From Spirochaetota bacterium (GTDB taxonomy: Bacteria > Spirochaetota > UBA4802 > UBA5550), in contig CAXXHB010000003.1 of the NCBI GenBank assembly GCA_963664815.2, forward strand, positions 4,064,001 to 4,128,000: a stretch of 64,000 nucleotides of DNA, written 5' to 3'. The translations under genes were made by a program, and so were the position numbers. Below are positions 2,880 through 8,870 of the stretch, one piece after another. The number at the start of each line of letters is the position of its first letter. Within the stretch, counting starts at the first letter, position 1. The notes beneath the pieces are model-generated. The model ran no database searches and was not told the origin of the DNA. It worked only from the letters and a program-made list of their open reading frames with translations.

Positions 2880-3701
2880 TTATTTAAATGCTGCAAGCTT
2901 TCCCGTTCTGTCTATCCCAAGGCTTTTAAGAAAATGTACATTCTCAGCACGAATTCTGTTTCCAAAACTTTCCGGTTTAATCAGATTAATTTTATTTAAA
3001 ATATCGCTTCTCACCTTCATAAACTGTGTTGTATAAAAAAAATAACCTTTAAGAGTTCTGTCATAAATAAATATTTTATGAATACTGTAATCTCCTGAGT
3101 TGAATATTTTCATACCAAATTTTGTTGAATTACCAATTGAAGTATTATTTACAATAAAATTATCCCCATTGTTAATAAACTCACTCCTGAAGTAAAGAGA
3201 GCCAAGTCTATTATCCTTAACAGCAAAATGTGAAATTATTTTCTCAGGAATATCTCTATCTTTGGTATTTATTACTACATTATCTTCCGGAGATTTTATT
3301 TTATACCCATCAAGAATCAATGTCGAGATTGTCCCTTGAGTTTGAGAATAGTAACTCATCCCTTTTAGCGCGGAAAAACCTGTTAATGTTCTGTATATTT
3401 TAAGTCTATTTGCTTTGCTCACTTCCATGTAAAAAAAACCTTTTTCAACAGCTACTATATCATAGTCAGAAGATGTCTCGGTAAAATAATAATTTTTAAC
3501 AGGCAAAATATTCTCTACACCGGGAGTATAGACCTCACCTTTTCCATTCAATATAACTGATGTCAGGAACTCTCCGCTTAGAACAATCTTCATCTCTGCT
3601 GATGTAAAAAATAGTTTTGACGATATTTCAGAAGCAGGATAAAGTAATGAAGATATAAATATAAAAATTATTGTATTTAAAAAATTTTTTATACTTAACA
3701 T
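2880..3701 (-). CDS. Exported protein resembling spirochaete DUF6675 family
   Basis: Signal-like N-terminus; LKGMSYYS...TLILDGY, DNRLG and SFGNRIRA motifs recalled from spirochaete DUF6675 proteins (not searched). Confidence 0.55.
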   Translation of the reverse strand: MLSIKNFLNTIIFIFISSLLYPASEISSKLFFTSAEMKIVLSGEFLTSVILNGKGEVYTPGVENILPVKNYYFTETSSDYDIVAVEKGFFYMEVSKANRLKIYRTLTGFSALKGMSYYSQTQGTISTLILDGYKIKSPEDNVVINTKDRDIPEKIISHFAVKDNRLGSLYFRSEFINNGDNFIVNNTSIGNSTKFGMKIFNSGDYSIHKIFIYDRTLKGYFFYTTQFMKVRSDILNKINLIKPESFGNRIRAENVHFLKSLGIDRTGKLAAFK

Positions 3702-3719
3702 GGCTTCATGGATATTATT

Positions 3720-4418
3720 TTATATTCCGCGGATGAAGCAGAAATCGGTAAATTTTTCCGTTTCATTTTTCAACAAATTCAGATATTCAGATGTGTAAGG
3801 TTTGAGCTGTTTTAGCCTGTCGTCAAGAAGAGTATTTATGTTTACAAACTGTTGTAAGTAATATTTTTTCACTCTCCCTGTTGATTCGCCTATTTTTATT
3901 ATATCATTAACAGTTACAAATCCCGGGACACAGGTTGTTCTTATTTCATAATCAATTAATGATTTTTTAAGTATATCCAGTGTTGTAACAATTTCGTTAA
4001 AAGAAAAATCCCTTCCTGTCAATAAAGGATATTTCTCCGGAGAAGTCTTTACATCAACAGCAACATAGTCCACTAACCCTTTTTCAATACATTCCGAAAT
4101 AACATGAGGAAGAAAACCGTTTGTATCAAGTTTGACATGAAGTCCCATAGAGTTAACTCTTTCCAAAAATGGAATTAGCCCACTGTCTATTGCCGGTTCT
4201 CCTCCTGTAACAGTTATTCCATCTATTAACCCTTTTCTTTTTTCTATAAAAGAAAAAATTTCCTCATCTTCAAATTTTTCCAGATCAGAGCTATTCATCG
4301 CAAGTTCAGGATTGTGGCAATAACCACACCTTAAATTGCAACCCCCGGTAAATATAACCGAACATATCTTCCCGGGGTAGTCTATCAGGGAAGTTTTAAA
4401 CAGCCCTCTTATATTCAT
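3720..4418 (-). CDS. nrdG: Anaerobic ribonucleoside-triphosphate reductase activating protein (radical SAM)
   Basis: SLIDYPGK..FTGGCNLRCGYCHNP, TGGEP, KLDTNG; lies in the nrdD operon. Confidence 0.93.
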   Translation of the reverse strand: MNIRGLFKTSLIDYPGKICSVIFTGGCNLRCGYCHNPELAMNSSDLEKFEDEEIFSFIEKRKGLIDGITVTGGEPAIDSGLIPFLERVNSMGLHVKLDTNGFLPHVISECIEKGLVDYVAVDVKTSPEKYPLLTGRDFSFNEIVTTLDILKKSLIDYEIRTTCVPGFVTVNDIIKIGESTGRVKKYYLQQFVNINTLLDDRLKQLKPYTSEYLNLLKNETEKFTDFCFIRGI

Positions 4419-4575
4419 TTAGTGAGTATACTTTATCTGTCAGATTAGAATCAATAGAATATTCCCTTCTTTCAGAAAATTCCTCCTGTTTTCCTTTATT
4501 CCATTGGTTAACCGGCCTGAAATAACCGACGACTCTTGAATATACCTCTGTACAAACCACAATTTCTTTTTTCAT
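4396..4575 (-). CDS. Stand-alone glycyl-radical domain of class III RNR (59 aa; absent from the ORF track)
   Basis: Manual translation: MKKEIVVCTEVYSRVVGYFRPVNQWNKGKQEEFSERREYSIDSNLTDKVYSLNEYKRAV*. Contains the NrdD RVxGY glycyl-radical motif; SD AGGAG 7 nt before the ATG; overlaps the nrdG start by 23 nt. Confidence 0.9.
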   Translation of the reverse strand: MKKEIVVCTEVYSRVVGYFRPVNQWNKGKQEEFSERREYSIDSNLTDKVYSLNEYKRAV

Positions 4576-4617
4576 CTTATGTCTCCTACAGGATTGAATA
4601 TCATTTAATACTATATA

Positions 4618-6648
4618 TTACTTATCGACCTCTATCCCGTATTTCAATAGCTCTTCCGGAGTATGATCGAAGGGACAGTATTTATGTTCCCCGGAAATAT
4701 ATCCATGTATTGGACAAATACTGAAAGTAGGGGTTAGAGTAAAATAGGGGAGTGCATAATTTTCTGATATTTTTCTTACAAGCGATTTGACCACCTCTAT
4801 ATCATCAATCTTTTCACCAAGAAAAAGATGAACAACCGTACCGCCTGTAAATTTAGTTTGAAGTGAATCCTGATGATCAAGAACTTCAAAGAGATCATCT
4901 GTATATGATACCGGGAGATGAACCGAATTTGTATAATATGGTTCATTTTTACCTGCGGTTTTTATTTCAGGATAGCGGGCTTTATCACTTCTGGCAAATC
5001 TATATGTTACACCTTCAGCTGGAGTTGCCTCAAGATTGTAAAAGTGACCCGTTTCCTCCTGGTACTTCATTATCTTATCTCTCATAAAATCAAGAACTTT
5101 AAGTGCAAAGGTTTTGCCCTCAATTGTTGAGATATCAGCATTGAGAAAATTAACACATGCCTCGTTCATTCCCACAAGTCCTATGGTAGAGAAATGGTTA
5201 CCCCAGTATTTTTTATCCCTGTCCCATACTCCTGAAAGATAATATCTTGTATATGGATAAAGATCACTTGATGTAAAATTTTCAAGAGCCTTCCTTTTAA
5301 TTTCGAGGGAGTTCTTTGCAAGTATCATCAAATTTTCTAGTCGTATAAAAAAGTCCTCTTCATTTTCAGCAAGAAATCCTACTCTTGGCAGATTAATTGT
5401 AACAACCCCGATGCTGCCGGTAAGAGGGTTTGCTCCAAACAGACCACCTCCTCTTTTACGCAACTCCCTGTTGTCAAGACGTAACCTGCAGCACATTGAT
5501 CTCGCATCTTCCGGATCCATGTCGGAATTAACAAAGTTGGCAAAATATGGAATTCCGTATCGTGCAGTCATTTCCCATATCTTATTTAGATTCGGATTAT
5601 CCCACTCAAAATCCTTGGATATGTTATATGTAGGAATCGGAAAAGTGAATATTCTGTTTTTTGCATCGCCTTCCGTCAGACACTCAGCAAAGGCGGAGTT
5701 GAATATATCCATCTCTTTAGTAAATTCACCATAGGTCCTGTCCATCAGCTCTCCGCCAATAATAACATACTCTGCAGCAACAGTTGATGGAGGTATCAGA
5801 TCAAGAGTAACATTTGTAAATGGCGTCTGAAATCCAACCCTCGTTGGTATGTTCATGTTGAAAACAAATTCCTGGAGGGATTGTTTAACTTCATCATATT
5901 CAAGATTATCGTAGTAAATAAAAGGTGCAAGATATGTGTCAAAATTGGCAAAAGCCTGTGCTCCTGCTGACTCTCCCTGCAGTGTGTAAAAAAAGTTTAC
6001 CACCTGGCCGAGTGCACTTCTGAAATGCTTTGCCGGTTTACTTTCTACTTTTCCCGGAACTCCTGAAAAACCTTTTATAAGCAGATCCTTCAAATCCCAT
6101 CCAACACAATAAGCTGACAGAAGTCCGAGATCATGAAGATGAAAATCACCATTGATATGTGGTTCTCTGACTTCCGGTGGATATATTCTTTCAAGCCAGT
6201 ATTTTGCTGTAAGCGAAGTCGATATATGATTATTGAGCCCCTGGAGAGAATAGCTCATGTTACTATTCTCATTTACCCTCCAATCAGACCTGTCGAGATA
6301 ATTGTCAATAAGTTCAAGTCCTTCGTTTAGAAGATCTTTCCCGTCCCTGATCCTTCTATGCTGTTCTCTGTAAATAATATATGCCTTTGCAACCTTGGCG
6401 TGTCCTCTTTCAATGAGCATTTTCTCAACAAGATCCTGAACATTTTCTACTGTGGGGATTCTGCCGTCTTTATATACTATACTCAATATATCCTGAACAG
6501 AACATGCAACTTTTTCAGCTGTATCACGGCTTGTTCCACCCACAGCTTGTGCCGATTTAAAAATTGCATCTGTTATTTTATCGATATTAAAAGGAACAAT
6601 ACGACCGTCCCTCTTACGGATATATCCAAGATCTGTTTCATCTTTCAT
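4618..6648 (-). CDS. nrdD: Class III (anaerobic) ribonucleoside-triphosphate reductase large subunit lacking the C-terminal glycyl-radical domain
   Basis: N-terminal ATP cone (IRKRDGRIVPF...VENVQDLVE), HLHDL, RSMCCRL finger loop, NLEATPAEG, TGGTVVH, CPIHG..CPFDH; no RVxGY in the ORF. Confidence 0.95.
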   Translation of the reverse strand: MKDETDLGYIRKRDGRIVPFNIDKITDAIFKSAQAVGGTSRDTAEKVACSVQDILSIVYKDGRIPTVENVQDLVEKMLIERGHAKVAKAYIIYREQHRRIRDGKDLLNEGLELIDNYLDRSDWRVNENSNMSYSLQGLNNHISTSLTAKYWLERIYPPEVREPHINGDFHLHDLGLLSAYCVGWDLKDLLIKGFSGVPGKVESKPAKHFRSALGQVVNFFYTLQGESAGAQAFANFDTYLAPFIYYDNLEYDEVKQSLQEFVFNMNIPTRVGFQTPFTNVTLDLIPPSTVAAEYVIIGGELMDRTYGEFTKEMDIFNSAFAECLTEGDAKNRIFTFPIPTYNISKDFEWDNPNLNKIWEMTARYGIPYFANFVNSDMDPEDARSMCCRLRLDNRELRKRGGGLFGANPLTGSIGVVTINLPRVGFLAENEEDFFIRLENLMILAKNSLEIKRKALENFTSSDLYPYTRYYLSGVWDRDKKYWGNHFSTIGLVGMNEACVNFLNADISTIEGKTFALKVLDFMRDKIMKYQEETGHFYNLEATPAEGVTYRFARSDKARYPEIKTAGKNEPYYTNSVHLPVSYTDDLFEVLDHQDSLQTKFTGGTVVHLFLGEKIDDIEVVKSLVRKISENYALPYFTLTPTFSICPIHGYISGEHKYCPFDHTPEELLKYGIEVDK

Positions 6649-6925
6649 CAAAGTTGAACCTCGTAGTTACAAATAAAAAAAATAAAGAATACCATATTCA
6701 GCAATTTTCTACTGCAGAAAACAGGGAAATAAAGTTGTTTATATTTATTTACGTAGGTAATGCACGATTGAGCTCTCAATCCATTAATTAGATTTTGCAA
6801 AATTCTGCATTTAAGTCAATCAAAAATATTATGTCTCAAAAAAAATATTATAAAAAAATGTTAGGATGCCGATAGAAAAATTAGAGAAGTGTATCCCTTA
6901 ATATTATACTATTTTGGAGCTAAGC

Positions 6926-7447
6926 ATGAAAAGACATTCAATCCTGATAATATTCGTTTTAACAATTGCAACAGTATTTATAAGCAGCTCAGGAGCTATG
7001 TACAGTTCTTCAATAATTGAGAAAATAAAACCGATCTCAGATGAGATTCCCACAGGATATATGTTTGGCCAGGTTCCTGAATTTGCGCGTAGTTTACTGA
7101 AAAGCAATCCATGGACCCTTGATCAAACAGCAATTAAAAAGCTTACAAACAGAATATATCCCGGGGGTGAATATACAAAAGTATCAGATCTCCACATGAC
7201 CATAATTACCAACAAAAAGAATCCTTATGGTGATGATATTGTATGTTACATATTTATTTTCAGAAATGAAAAATCAGCCCAGGAAGAATTGGTTAAACTG
7301 AATGAACATGTCAATTACAACAGTGACAGAGCAATTATTATTGAGAAAAAAAATCTTGCTGTTTACCTCCATGTTGACAGTGTAAAGGATTTCGAGTACA
7401 TAAAAGCAATGTCCGAATCTATGAAAAAGAGACTTGAAACACTATAG
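6926..7447 (+). CDS. Hypothetical exported protein
   Basis: GGAG SD before ATG 6926; MKRH followed by a hydrophobic signal peptide; 173 aa. Confidence 0.65.
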   Translation: MKRHSILIIFVLTIATVFISSSGAMYSSSIIEKIKPISDEIPTGYMFGQVPEFARSLLKSNPWTLDQTAIKKLTNRIYPGGEYTKVSDLHMTIITNKKNPYGDDIVCYIFIFRNEKSAQEELVKLNEHVNYNSDRAIIIEKKNLAVYLHVDSVKDFEYIKAMSESMKKRLETL

Positions 7448-7451
7448 AAAA

Positions 7452-8870
7452 TCAGCTTAAATAACGTATTATACCTTTCGCGGCCTCTCTTCCATGATGT
7501 ATAGCCCAGACTACCAATGATGCGCCGCGTACAGAATCACCTGCGGAGAAAACCCCATCAACTGAAGACATAAAATTTCCGTCTATCTCTATATTGCCAT
7601 TTTTATCAAGTTTCAGACCAAAGTCTTTTACAAGCCCTTCATGTGCTACATGTAAAAAGCCCATAGATAAAAACACTAGATCTGTCTGAAGTTCGAATTC
7701 AGTTCCAGGTATTTCTTTCATCACTTCATTTCCATTATCATCCTTCTCCCGTGTAACTCTTACTGTTGAAATTTTTTTTACATCACCCCTCTCGCCGGAA
7801 AATCTAATTGTCTTTACCCCCCATAACCTCTCACATCCCTCCTCGTGAGAACTTGACGTTTTCTTTACTTTAGGCCATAGCGGCCATGGATCTCCGGATG
7901 TTCTATGATCTGGTGGTTCAGGAAGAATTTCTATCTGAGTTACACTGCTGGCTCCCTGCCTGATTGCATTCCCCACGCAATCAGAGCCGGTATCACCTCC
8001 TCCTATAACCACTACCTTTTTATTAATTGCTTTAATCACTTCATCTTCAGAGATTTGGTCTCCCCTTACACGCCTGTTCTGCTGTTCAAGGTATTCCATG
8101 GCAAAATGGATTCCGCCAAGAGTTCTGCCCCCTATCTCCATATCTCTGGGAGTTCTTGCACCTATAGCAATCATTACGGCATCAAATGATTTTAAGAGTT
8201 CTTTTACACTTATATCTCTTCCCGCCTTAACCCCGGTTTTAAATTGTATCCCTTCTTTCATTAATATATCTACTCTGCGATCTATTATCTTTTTGTCGAG
8301 CTTAAAGTCCGGAATTCCAAACCTCAAATATCCGCCAATGCTGTCCTCAGATTCAAGTACGGTTACCAGAAGTCCTTCCCTGTTCAGCATATCTGCACAA
8401 GCTAGACCTGCAGGGCCACTCCCCACTACCACAACTTTTTTCCCATTCCTTACAATAGGTGGTTCAGGTTTAACATATCCAAGCTCGAAAGCTTTCTCAA
8501 TCACTGCGAGTTCATTCTGCCTTATTGTTACAGGTTCATCGTTTATCGAAAGGACACATGATGCTTCACACGGTGCGGGACAGACTCTGCCTGTAAACTC
8601 AGGAAAATTATTTGTTTCCCTCAGAATTTCATAAGCACCTTTCCAGTCTTTTCTGAAAATCATATCCTGCCACTCAGGCATGATGTTCCCCACCGGACAT
8701 CCCCAGTGACAGAAAGGCACTCCACAATCCATACACCTGGACGCCTGCAGTTCTCTTTCACTTTCAGGGAGCAGGATTTCAACTTCTTTATAATCATTTA
8801 CTCTTACTTCAACAGGTCTGTAGCCCGATTCCTTACGTCTTATATTTAGAAAACCTTTTGGATCTCCCAT
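7452..8870 (-). CDS. gltD: Glutamate synthase small subunit
   Basis: MGDPKGF, RCMDCGVPFC, FPEFTGRVCPAPCE, GSGPAGL, IGGGDTGSDC, SLVVWAI; translationally coupled to gltB. Confidence 0.96.
   Translation of the reverse strand: MGDPKGFLNIRRKESGYRPVEVRVNDYKEVEILLPESERELQASRCMDCGVPFCHWGCPVGNIMPEWQDMIFRKDWKGAYEILRETNNFPEFTGRVCPAPCEASCVLSINDEPVTIRQNELAVIEKAFELGYVKPEPPIVRNGKKVVVVGSGPAGLACADMLNREGLLVTVLESEDSIGGYLRFGIPDFKLDKKIIDRRVDILMKEGIQFKTGVKAGRDISVKELLKSFDAVMIAIGARTPRDMEIGGRTLGGIHFAMEYLEQQNRRVRGDQISEDEVIKAINKKVVVIGGGDTGSDCVGNAIRQGASSVTQIEILPEPPDHRTSGDPWPLWPKVKKTSSSHEEGCERLWGVKTIRFSGERGDVKKISTVRVTREKDDNGNEVMKEIPGTEFELQTDLVFLSMGFLHVAHEGLVKDFGLKLDKNGNIEIDGNFMSSVDGVFSAGDSVRGASLVVWAIHHGREAAKGIIRYLS

Follow-up and report, generated by a model that had tools for sequence, protein, structure and literature searches.

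Class III ribonucleotide reductases (RNRs) are described as single catalytic chains that carry their own glycyl radical (PMC9669993, PMC2795772, PMC4390871). The locus that we describe here resembles the canonical NrdD/NrdG systems of phage T4, E. coli, Thermotoga maritima (4coi) and Prevotella copri (8p23) in its ATP-cone, its catalytic barrel and its MCCR loop, in a candidate metal knuckle before the radical loop, in the RVxGY glycine loop itself, and in the adjacent activase NrdG. It differs from them in that the radical loop is not part of the same polypeptide as the barrel, being the product of a separate 59-aa gene; in that the fourth candidate metal ligand is a histidine in C-x3-H, not a cysteine in C-x2-C; in an extra EELxKYG tail on the catalytic body; and in having three peptide genes to one body.

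A small standalone radical loop is likewise found in GrcA/YfiD and phage T4 Y06I, the autonomous glycyl-radical cofactor of pyruvate formate-lyase (PFL), and, like GrcA/YfiD, the peptide is presumably activated by its parent enzyme's activase. In contrast to GrcA/YfiD, the peptide is homologous to the end of NrdD (PF13597), not to the PFL radical domain (PF01228); GrcA is about twice as large, making the window peptide about half its size; and the peptide is obligatory here, because the body has no loop of its own. There are about even odds that the peptide is to RNR what the GrcA/YfiD spare part is to PFL, albeit in obligatory form. Phage-encoded versions exist of both (for GrcA, as described in PMC13450708), and a 2026 review presents spare parts outside PFL as an open question.

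The split class II reductase NrdJa + NrdJb of Pseudomonas aeruginosa also places a C-terminal, zinc-finger-containing module on a separate adjacent gene (PMC5704485, PMC9669993), but it belongs to another RNR class, and its detached NrdJb is described as a cysteine-rich, reductant-shuttling domain, not a radical carrier, and as a far larger module of 150-220 aa (PMC5704485). We found no description of a split NrdD with a separate radical peptide in the literature searched.

Gene order and domain content of the locus

Within the window, the 64,000-nucleotide stretch of Spirochaetota DNA that was analysed, the locus comprises the following features.

3720..4418, minus strand: nrdG, radical-SAM activase, 232 aa (TIGR02495 NrdG2, 198.1 bits, cut-off 131.15)
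4396..4575, minus strand: ORF of the 59-aa glycyl-radical peptide (NRDD 533-562; NF006126 651-683)
4525-4527, minus strand: codon of the radical glycine, Gly17 of the peptide, within EVYSRVVGYFRPVNQWNKGKQEEF (from the motif)
4576..4617, minus strand: intergenic spacer of 42 nt, with Shine-Dalgarno (SD) sequence AGGAG at 4583-4587 (from the sequence)
4618..6648, minus strand: nrdD body (NF006126, PF13597 and PF03477 matches)
4618..4620, minus strand: TAA stop of the nrdD body (from the sequence; also in contigs of two studies)
4621..4662, minus strand: C-terminal tail of the body, consensus ..[ST]xEELxKYG.. (from the homologue alignment)
4663..4716, minus strand: candidate metal site C645-x2-H648 ... 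C658-x3-H662 (CPIH ... CPFDH; from invariance)
5485..5496, minus strand: finger-loop motif M385 C386 C387 R388 (676-aa numbering; invariant in 73 aligned bodies)
6355..6624, minus strand: ATP-cone domain of the body (PF03477, residues 10-99, 81.3 bits)

The body is 676 aa long when read from ATG 6648, or 677 aa if the upstream TTG 6651 is used. Its catalytic barrel matches curated NrdD models above every cut-off given, with 1042.9 bits for NF006126 (cut-off 548; profile positions 5-653 of 684) and 511 bits for TIGR02487 (cut-off 326), and Pfam NRDD (PF13597) matches with 584 bits over positions 1-525 of 562. We found no class II (B12-dependent) barrel in the body, which matched class III models instead; class I and II RNR models touch it only at the ATP-cone (residues 9-117), far below their cut-offs. 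The finger loop reads SMCCRL and so falls within the MGCR and MCCR motif classes of class III enzymes, as defined in PMC9669993; by its motif, the MCCR loop is the site of the catalytic thiyl cysteine.

The RVxGY motif is absent from the body, which ends at profile position 653 of 684, and the peptide matches the very end that is missing, resuming NF006126 at position 651. Residues 101-603 of T. maritima NrdD (4coi) align to the body and residues 614-643 to the peptide, which matches PF13597 only and not the PFL-type Gly_radical family PF01228. The peptide has the makings of a standalone small protein, with a start codon of its own and AGGAG (4587-4583) 7 nt ahead of this ATG. Directly downstream, nrdG supplies an adjacent dedicated activase, its start (ATG 4418) overlapping the last 23 nt of the peptide ORF (4396-4418). 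The first-pass annotation had described a split NrdD without RVxGY, its loop on a separate 59-aa gene with a strong AGGAG, an overlap of that gene with nrdG, and a single in-frame TAA with 14 open codons between the two ORFs; profiles and coordinates bear out each of these statements for the window genome.

The split among relatives

The first-pass annotation had asked whether relatives keep the split. Nine of nine related loci do, their spacers measuring 29-58 nt and covering each of the three frame offsets; in six the peptide lies out of frame with the body, and one in-frame spacer contains three stops. The body stop is TAA in these nine loci and also in L025-L034. Among wider relatives the spacer measures 4-58 nt, again in all three frame offsets, with AGGAG or GGAG kept and a conserved SD and ATG ahead of every peptide. 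The fear that all close homologues might be fused proved unfounded: the best 120 body homologues all lack the motif (120/120) and have the C-x2-H...C-x3-H tail in common. The 120 peptide homologues share an invariant core, and 119 of them start with M. We checked the classification as split or fused via the body tail and its stop, because open-frame length is misleading in GC-rich genomes (L100 has a 752-aa open frame yet is split; L047, 432 aa).

In the window genome itself the two ORFs share a frame, with one TAA between them, as would be expected if sequencing or assembly had gone wrong, or if a nonsense mutation had recently struck, in a gene that is truly fused or is a dying pseudogene; we dropped this caveat, to which we now give next to no credence, because relatives vary in spacer frame and carry several stops, and it is further opposed by the uniform ending of the 120 body homologues, by a dN/dS of 0.01-0.04 for the operon peptide, by a junction at which body plus peptide run ~20 residues longer than the fused profile and hold the conserved SD and ATG, and by the TAA itself, which the contigs of two studies show without change, one being X1 (possibly the source) and the other X4, whose contig (record 9) covers 4532-4851 with 0 differences. 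Programmed recoding, whether by read-through, frameshift or ribosome hopping, would yield one fused NrdD and would suit a spacer as short as the 42 in-frame nucleotides found here. It is nonetheless very improbable, as no one rule can account for spacers that range over 4-58 nt and three frames and in one case hold several stops, and as every peptide has its own conserved SD and ATG; standalone copies elsewhere in the genome, with promoter-like hexamers upstream (by eye), and phage contigs with a lone peptide far from any nrdD also speak against it. We conclude from these comparisons that the split is genuine and old, that it is subject to purifying selection and that its parts are translated independently.

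We also considered and rejected an interruption of the junction by a group I intron or an intein, the spacer being 4-58 nt with ordinary stop and start signals on both flanks.

Candidate metal site, docking model and proposed mechanism

Across 73 aligned bodies the four candidate ligands C645, H648, C658 and H662 never vary, and they may bind a metal. Canonical fused relatives have C-x2-H ... C-x2-C at this position, from which the body differs in its last candidate ligand and in spacing. The first-pass annotation had suggested that a peptide cysteine completes a Zn site in trans. For this lineage the suggestion is unsupported, because Cys8 of the window peptide is not conserved, and the body brings four invariant candidate ligands of its own; Cys8 also lies off the canonical ligand position, and in 117 of 120 peptide homologues the residues ahead of the motif include no Cys. 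The suggestion does fit a second type of split, found in Desulfuromonadales and others, in which three ligands precede the stop of the body and a Cys kept by the peptide, five residues ahead of EVY, takes the position that the fourth Cys has in fused enzymes; there the peptide Cys may complete the Zn site.

Of the NrdD, peptide and NrdG complex that the first-pass annotation had proposed to model, we modelled the body and peptide as a pair, and they docked with an ipSAE of 0.80 (runs 0.80, 0.81 and 0.78) against 0.00 for the best control. At least 83% of contacts are common to the runs, partner pLDDT is at least 66, and body residues 666-676 contact peptide residues 2-20. Among 80 solved complexes 58 came up to this mark, as did 2 among 110 mismatched pairs, counts that hold only roughly here because our own alignments were used, with Zn riding along. 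In the model, then, the peptide docks on the body; as structures of fused NrdD have been solved, this pass may reflect likeness or memory rather than binding.

Conservation, purifying selection, translation signals, unlinked paralogues and the docking model all favour the three-component class III RNR that had been proposed for this locus. We consider it probable, at roughly 0.85, that the 676-aa body, the 59-aa peptide and NrdG are three separately translated proteins that together make up one such enzyme. The body contributes an ATP-cone, the catalytic barrel, which bears the MCCR finger loop, and a predicted Cys2His2-type metal knuckle. NrdG and SAM would take a hydrogen from peptide Gly17, with the peptide either free or docked. 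The N-terminal strand of the peptide would pair with body residues 641-645, beside the metal knuckle, and the loop would enter the barrel, where the glycyl radical would give rise to a thiyl radical on the finger-loop cysteine. Nucleotide reduction would then proceed as in fused NrdD.

Further peptide copies and possible exchange

The genome that contains the window encodes one body, no fused NrdD, three peptides and one NrdG, the single match to the NrdG model above its cut-off. The peptide thus has no full-length parent enzyme beside it in this genome and, in the absence of a fused NrdD, nothing else could provide the body with a radical glycine. A second RNR large chain is present (PF02867, 775-aa frame), so NrdD need not be essential, and one cannot take its activity to follow from the cell's needs.

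Two of the peptide copies, orphans A and B, are unlinked to nrdD and syntenic in 5-6 genomes of three genera, with dN/dS of 0-0.18 where dS is unsaturated. Their neighbours are birA for one and a sensor kinase and ECF-sigma cluster for the other, with no RNR genes, and they have Ser before the glycine where the operon form has Val or Ala. Ser before the radical glycine is a PFL feature. The orphans could serve another role, and one might go further and regard the small proteins, orphans above all, as NrdG decoys or regulators, or as carriers for another glycyl-radical enzyme, such as the 864-aa PFL-like enzyme of this genome. We find this improbable. The NrdD model is the only one that any of the three peptides matches, and the orphans keep the flanking core that is specific to NrdD, with its invariant QWN.GK stretch; the PFL-like enzyme, the only match to PF01228 in the genome, keeps a radical domain of its own; and, for the operon copy, the body has no other source of a radical.

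By eye, -35/-10-like hexamers can be seen upstream of both orphans, and GAGACATAATAT is common to the regions upstream of nrdD and orphan B. A promoter and terminator consensus scan of 3500-7000 was uninformative, since its 8 promoter-like sites fall short of the 13.0 that shuffles lead one to expect, and an Rfam scan of the three peptide loci matched nothing at E up to 1.

Of 401 genomes in the phylum 199 match the peptide, and throughout the window's order the open frames are short. In Desulfuromonadales (the order around G406) 107 of 121 genomes match, only 2 of the matches lie in frames of at least 700 aa, and the split set includes single-contig genomes; by these counts the split form dominates there. 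The best 150 cluster representatives, from 1.84 billion proteins, are all 47-192 aa long, and 147 start with M. Other architectures occur as well. In further Spirochaetota families the peptide is fused to a glutaredoxin-like domain, and two candidate-phyla-radiation (CPR) loci, L101 and L113, have an extra peptide copy beside a fused NrdD, in the form of an 87-aa ORF with zinc ribbon and radical loop ahead of nrdG; an intact enzyme with an extra copy was seen in these two loci only. The naturally fused forms L023 and L024 have the same body tail followed by a ~45-aa linker, the EELxKYG-type tail being specific to split bodies and these long-linker relatives.

Phage contigs carry the peptide alone, far from any nrdD. 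Among GenBank phages only 2 tblastn hits to the peptide were found, and in PHROGs the peptides weakly hit the end of phrog_487 (NrdD-like large subunit), with no standalone-peptide family. A 144-aa viral fragment had been interpreted as a whole viral RNR.

The split could be functional but neutral, a fixed obligate heterodimer without exchange or repair whose extra copies are differently regulated isoforms. Among the alternatives this one survives best, although we still consider it unlikely. It has a precedent in split NrdJa/NrdJb, which is not known to have a repair role (PMC5704485, PMC9669993), and at least one re-fusion, that in L024, which is nested among split forms with support 95, suggests that either state works. 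Neutrality would not lead us to expect more than one origin, yet a single clade of all split bodies is rejected (p-AU 6e-70) and the split arose more than once; nor would it lead us to expect several paralogues under purifying selection, a CPR spare copy beside an intact fused enzyme, or phages with the peptide alone.

The retention of paralogues and the extra CPR copy beside a fused NrdD point toward a spare-part role, in which the peptide would be an exchangeable part that limits O2 damage. We place at about even odds the proposal that, after O2 cleavage, a fresh carrier can take over while the existing body stays in use, for which we have the small, separate nature of the protein and its two further unlinked copies in the genome. 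The supply of peptide carriers may also be differently regulated, and O2 economy, faster activation, regulation and neutral drift could each account for the split. More broadly, we lean slightly towards the view that NrdD-type peptides make up a large family, so far unrecognised, of radical cofactors that are autonomous and can be exchanged, with an obligate three-component RNR in whole orders (the window's Spirochaetota order, Desulfuromonadales and others), a disposable carrier of ~55 aa in several isoforms, a true spare part in CPR, and phage copies that, during infection, arm or re-arm a host body.

We suggest that the detached NrdD radical loop bears on more than this locus. Split bodies are at present labelled as complete reductases, and the peptides as 'hypothetical' or 'anaerobic ribonucleoside-triphosphate reductase'. 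Phages may raise dNTP supply with a 50-aa gene. The peptide offers a minimal substrate for the question of how an activase reaches a buried glycine, and a natural system for radical-carrier exchange, which the prevalence of the split in Desulfuromonadales opens to experiment. The existence of spare parts beyond PFL becomes directly testable and, if the peptides are indeed autonomous cofactors, spare-part proteins exist outside PFL.

Three genes for one reductase

The class III ribonucleotide reductase (RNR) of the window is encoded by three separate genes with their own translation signals, and its nrdD product (hereafter the body) has, to judge by its sequence, an intact catalytic part and lacks the glycyl-radical loop:

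6648 (ATG; or TTG 6651) to stop TAA 4618-4620, minus strand: nrdD (body)
42 nt, AGGAG at 4587-4583, minus strand: spacer between nrdD and the small ORF
4575-4396, minus strand: 59-aa ORF bearing the radical loop with Gly17 (peptide)
4418-3720, minus strand: nrdG, the radical-SAM activase, with a 23-nt overlap with the small ORF

The first-pass annotation had described this split nrdD and its 59-aa ORF correctly in all details, as both profile matches and structure alignments agree with it. The body matched the curated NrdD model NF006126 (positions 5-653 of 684, 1042.9 bits against a cut-off of 548), Pfam NRDD (positions 1-525 of 562) and the ATP-cone; the peptide is exactly the end absent from the body (NRDD 533-562; NF006126 651-683); and the third gene encodes NrdG2 (TIGR02495, 198 bits, cut-off 131). 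Compared with the solved structure of T. maritima NrdD (4coi), the body aligned to residues 101-603 and the peptide to residues 614-643. With no fused NrdD in the genome, the peptide is the body's sole possible source of radical glycine, and nrdG translation is likely coupled to the peptide via the overlap. The operon neighbours, a DUF6675 protein whose N-terminus resembles a signal sequence (2880-3701, minus), a 177-aa product that matches no Pfam family (6914-7447, plus) and a GltD-like Fer4_20 and Pyr_redox_2 oxidoreductase (7452-8870, minus), have no evident link to RNR.

In this genome nrdD and the small ORF are indeed in frame, with 14 open codons and one TAA between them. The TAA, flagged earlier as needing verification, was unchanged in contigs of two public studies, which are assembled sequences and not raw reads: the region was identical with zero differences, an X1 contig, possibly the source itself, covering all 601 bases and X4 record 9 covering 4532-4851, TAA included. 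A DNA search matched 29 of 31 related genomes, and the proposed comparison of relatives found the split kept in all nine loci that hold the junction (L002-L010), each with a TAA stop, a conserved AGGAG and an ATG, with both spacer length (29-58 nt) and frame varying (three in frame, one of these with three stops, and six out of frame). When 5.8 billion proteins were searched with the last 138 residues of the body, the best 120 homologues all lacked the glycine motif and had a common tail, CP[IV]HGY..G.H..CP..H[ST].[ED][EQ]L..[YFH]G. Of 120 peptide homologues, 119 begin with methionine, and the core they share, E.YSRV.GY.RP..QWN.GK..E, varies little or not at all among the 120. The 30-codon core of the peptide is under purifying selection (dN/dS 0.009-0.038, within the genus and for unsaturated dS only). 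The split is real, and not a sequencing error or a dying gene, as the contigs of two studies, the nine split relatives, the 120 motif-less bodies and the low dN/dS all argue against these.

A candidate metal site and predicted docking of the peptide

Across 73 aligned bodies there was no variation in the finger-loop motif M385-C386-C387-R388, in the barrel cysteine C181 or in four candidate metal ligands, C645, H648, C658 and H662. Fused relatives, with the loop on the same polypeptide, have C-x2-H ... C-x2-C at this place instead, so the fourth candidate ligand appears to have become a histidine here, placed one residue later, and the body by itself seems to hold the full site. A cysteine before the motif is absent from 117 of 120 peptide homologues, and Cys8 of the window's peptide is not conserved; with four candidate ligands on the body, this argues against the first-pass proposal that a peptide cysteine completes the Zn site in trans in the window's lineage. 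The proposal does fit a Desulfuromonadales-type split, in which the body ends after three ligands (CP.HGY..GEHF.CP...) and the peptide has a cysteine five residues before EVY, the position of the fused enzymes' fourth cysteine. Because of this arrangement, the metal site may there be completed across the two chains.

L047-L117: Desulfuromonadales-type split loci; in L074, for instance, the body stops at 2923 and the peptide lies at 3001-3120

Co-folding of body, peptide and Zn gave an ipSAE of 0.80 (runs 0.80, 0.81 and 0.78) against 0.00 for the best control, with at least 83% of contacts common to the runs and a partner pLDDT of at least 66. Results reaching this mark came from 58 of 80 solved complexes and from 2 of 110 mismatched pairs, counts that are only a rough guide here because we supplied our own alignments and included a ligand. 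Peptide residues 9-13 are predicted to pair with body residues 641-645, and the body tail (654-676) to cover peptide residues 2-20. Because structures of fused NrdDs exist, this result shows likeness to them and is no proof of binding.

Distribution and evolution of the split

The peptide matched in 199 of 401 sampled genomes of the phylum, and each of the seven families in the window's order has short open frames; among the matches listed, eight lie in open frames of 710-826 aa and are fused genes (99 further matches lie beyond these). Fetched loci from five further families have the order body-peptide-nrdG, with spacers of 4-43 nt. A second split type occurs in two other Spirochaetota families, where a body of 706-720 aa keeps C-x2-C, ends in a charged helical tail and is followed by a 179-188-aa protein (x in the operon nrdR-nrdD-x-nrdG) that carries the radical loop together with an N-terminal helix and a C-terminal glutaredoxin/thioredoxin-like domain:

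L036 2598-3164, plus strand: glutaredoxin/thioredoxin-like radical-loop protein
L037 1074-1613, minus strand: the same

The long charged tail and the N-terminal helix hint at a coiled-coil handshake between both chains. Family f28 (L023, L024) has an intermediate form, in which NrdD is fused and a linker of ~45 aa connects the radical loop to a tail of the split type (C-x3-H, EELxKYG).

A genome scan across all species, from which the best 80 of 564 relatives were kept as loci and which is biased towards likeness to the peptide alignment, gave 23 fused and 57 standalone loci, the latter with a body just upstream (48), at a contig edge with nrdG (2) or without a body within 3 kb (7). Split forms among these 80 also came from Desulfuromonadaceae, Geoalkalibacter, Syntrophotalea, other Thermodesulfobacteriota, Goldiibacteriota and Victivallaceae, and this is the group with the Cys-bearing (Desulfuromonadales-type) split. 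When the order of one such genome was surveyed, 107 of 121 genomes matched, with only two matches in frames of at least 700 aa. A profile search of 1.84 billion cluster representatives found 4646 proteins at E up to 0.001, and the best 150 of these were all of 47-192 aa, 147 starting with methionine. In the AT-rich genome G043, an orphan peptide ORF on the minus strand of L032 starts inside the fused enzymes' second Cys pair (M-S-K-C-G-K-E-T-E-V-Y...), with no body in the 4.5 kb fetched.

In two candidate phyla radiation (CPR) genomes a complete fused NrdD is followed, before nrdG, by a further short ORF, of 87 aa in L101, with a four-Cys ribbon, the radical loop and a CC end. This layout is that of a spare part for an RNR, like GrcA/YfiD, the autonomous spare part of pyruvate formate-lyase (PFL).

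L101 3158-3421, plus strand: CPR extra ORF
L113 3079-3399, plus strand: CPR extra ORF

At least five split/fused changes were needed in a tree of 77 bodies, built by quick maximum likelihood (LG+G4) with SH-aLRT as the only support measure; split and fused proportions in it are not unbiased, because its sample was picked through the peptide. The window lies within an all-split clade of 20 rows (support 99). The long-linker fused L024 is nested inside the second Spirochaetota split clade (support 95), suggesting that a split gene fused again. A single clade for all 52 split bodies was rejected (p-AU 6e-70), and one clade of the two main types with the long-linker form was not (p-AU 0.39). We therefore conclude that NrdD was split independently at least two or three times, and that both main types may go back to a single old event.

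Putative radical carriers apart from their enzyme

The window's own genome (G000) has one NRDD-barrel match, one NrdG above cut-off, zero fused NrdD and three peptide genes, two of them unlinked, outside the window, and preceded by a GGAG-type Shine-Dalgarno sequence:

G000:C3:1787333-1787455 (L014 1465-1626), minus strand: peptide copy A
G000:C3:3971094-3971240 (L015 1474-1647), minus strand: peptide copy B

Copy A lies directly upstream of two genes, one for a biotin ligase/repressor of BirA type (Pfam) and one for a membrane protein, and copy B after a sensor kinase, facing an ECF-sigma-like cluster. These neighbourhoods recur across three genera of the family (both in G000, G006, G003, G011 and G016; that of copy B also in G005), and the cores are under purifying selection (dN/dS 0-0.18 where measurable). 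The residue before the glycine is serine in copies A and B, and valine or alanine in the operon copy. A 12-mer, GAGACATAATAT, occurs upstream of both nrdD (window 6826-6838, minus) and copy B (L015 ~1888-1900, minus), and could be a promoter/operator element or chance in AT-rich DNA. G000 has, in addition, genes for an RNR large chain of class I/II type (775-aa frame; G000:C3:259682-261100) and an 864-aa PFL-like glycyl-radical enzyme with its own radical domain still fused (G000:C3:3871192-3871482), both outside the window.

Among the best 80 loci of a viral-contig survey (L127-L206), 66 have a peptide ORF that is short and stands alone, with neither an NrdD body nor NrdG lying within 3 kb; the others comprise four short ORFs with a body nearby, seven fused genes and three at contig edges. 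Nine loci were compared with PHROGs, and five of these have phage genes beside the peptide; L127, L129, L155 and L173 had solely PHROGs families of unknown function or fell outside the scan.

L134, L142, ~3001-3140: peptide beside terminase large subunit
L137, ~3001-3140: peptide beside Mu-type transposition protein and Gam
L141, ~3001-3140: peptide beside helicase
L163, ~3001-3140: peptide beside primase, replication initiator and DnaB
L207 2680-3114 (GenBank KP703175.1 25525-25959), plus strand: ANMV-1 virus CDS 'anaerobic ribonucleoside triphosphate reductase'

The ANMV-1 CDS, of 144 aa, holds a Cys-rich stretch and the radical loop only; the ANMV-1 paper took it to show that the virus has an oxygen-sensitive RNR.

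No split class III RNR or NrdD spare part was described in the full-text literature and paper passages searched. A 2026 review, in the excerpt consulted, gives spare parts as known for formate lyases only and their existence elsewhere as undetermined (PMC13450708), and the sections seen of an analysis of 1,375 class III sequences give the radical domain as C-terminal and mention a split for class II alone (PMC9669993).

By analogy with class III RNR and PFL/GrcA chemistry, NrdG and SAM would form the Gly17 radical on the peptide, which would dock through strand pairing beside the metal knuckle, and the radical would move to the finger-loop cysteine. Overall, the best description is that of a class III RNR with three components, one of them an autonomous glycyl-radical peptide, and the enzyme belongs to a large family that has apparently gone undescribed. 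Its detached, multi-copy carrier may permit replacement after cleavage by O2, or a regulated carrier pool.
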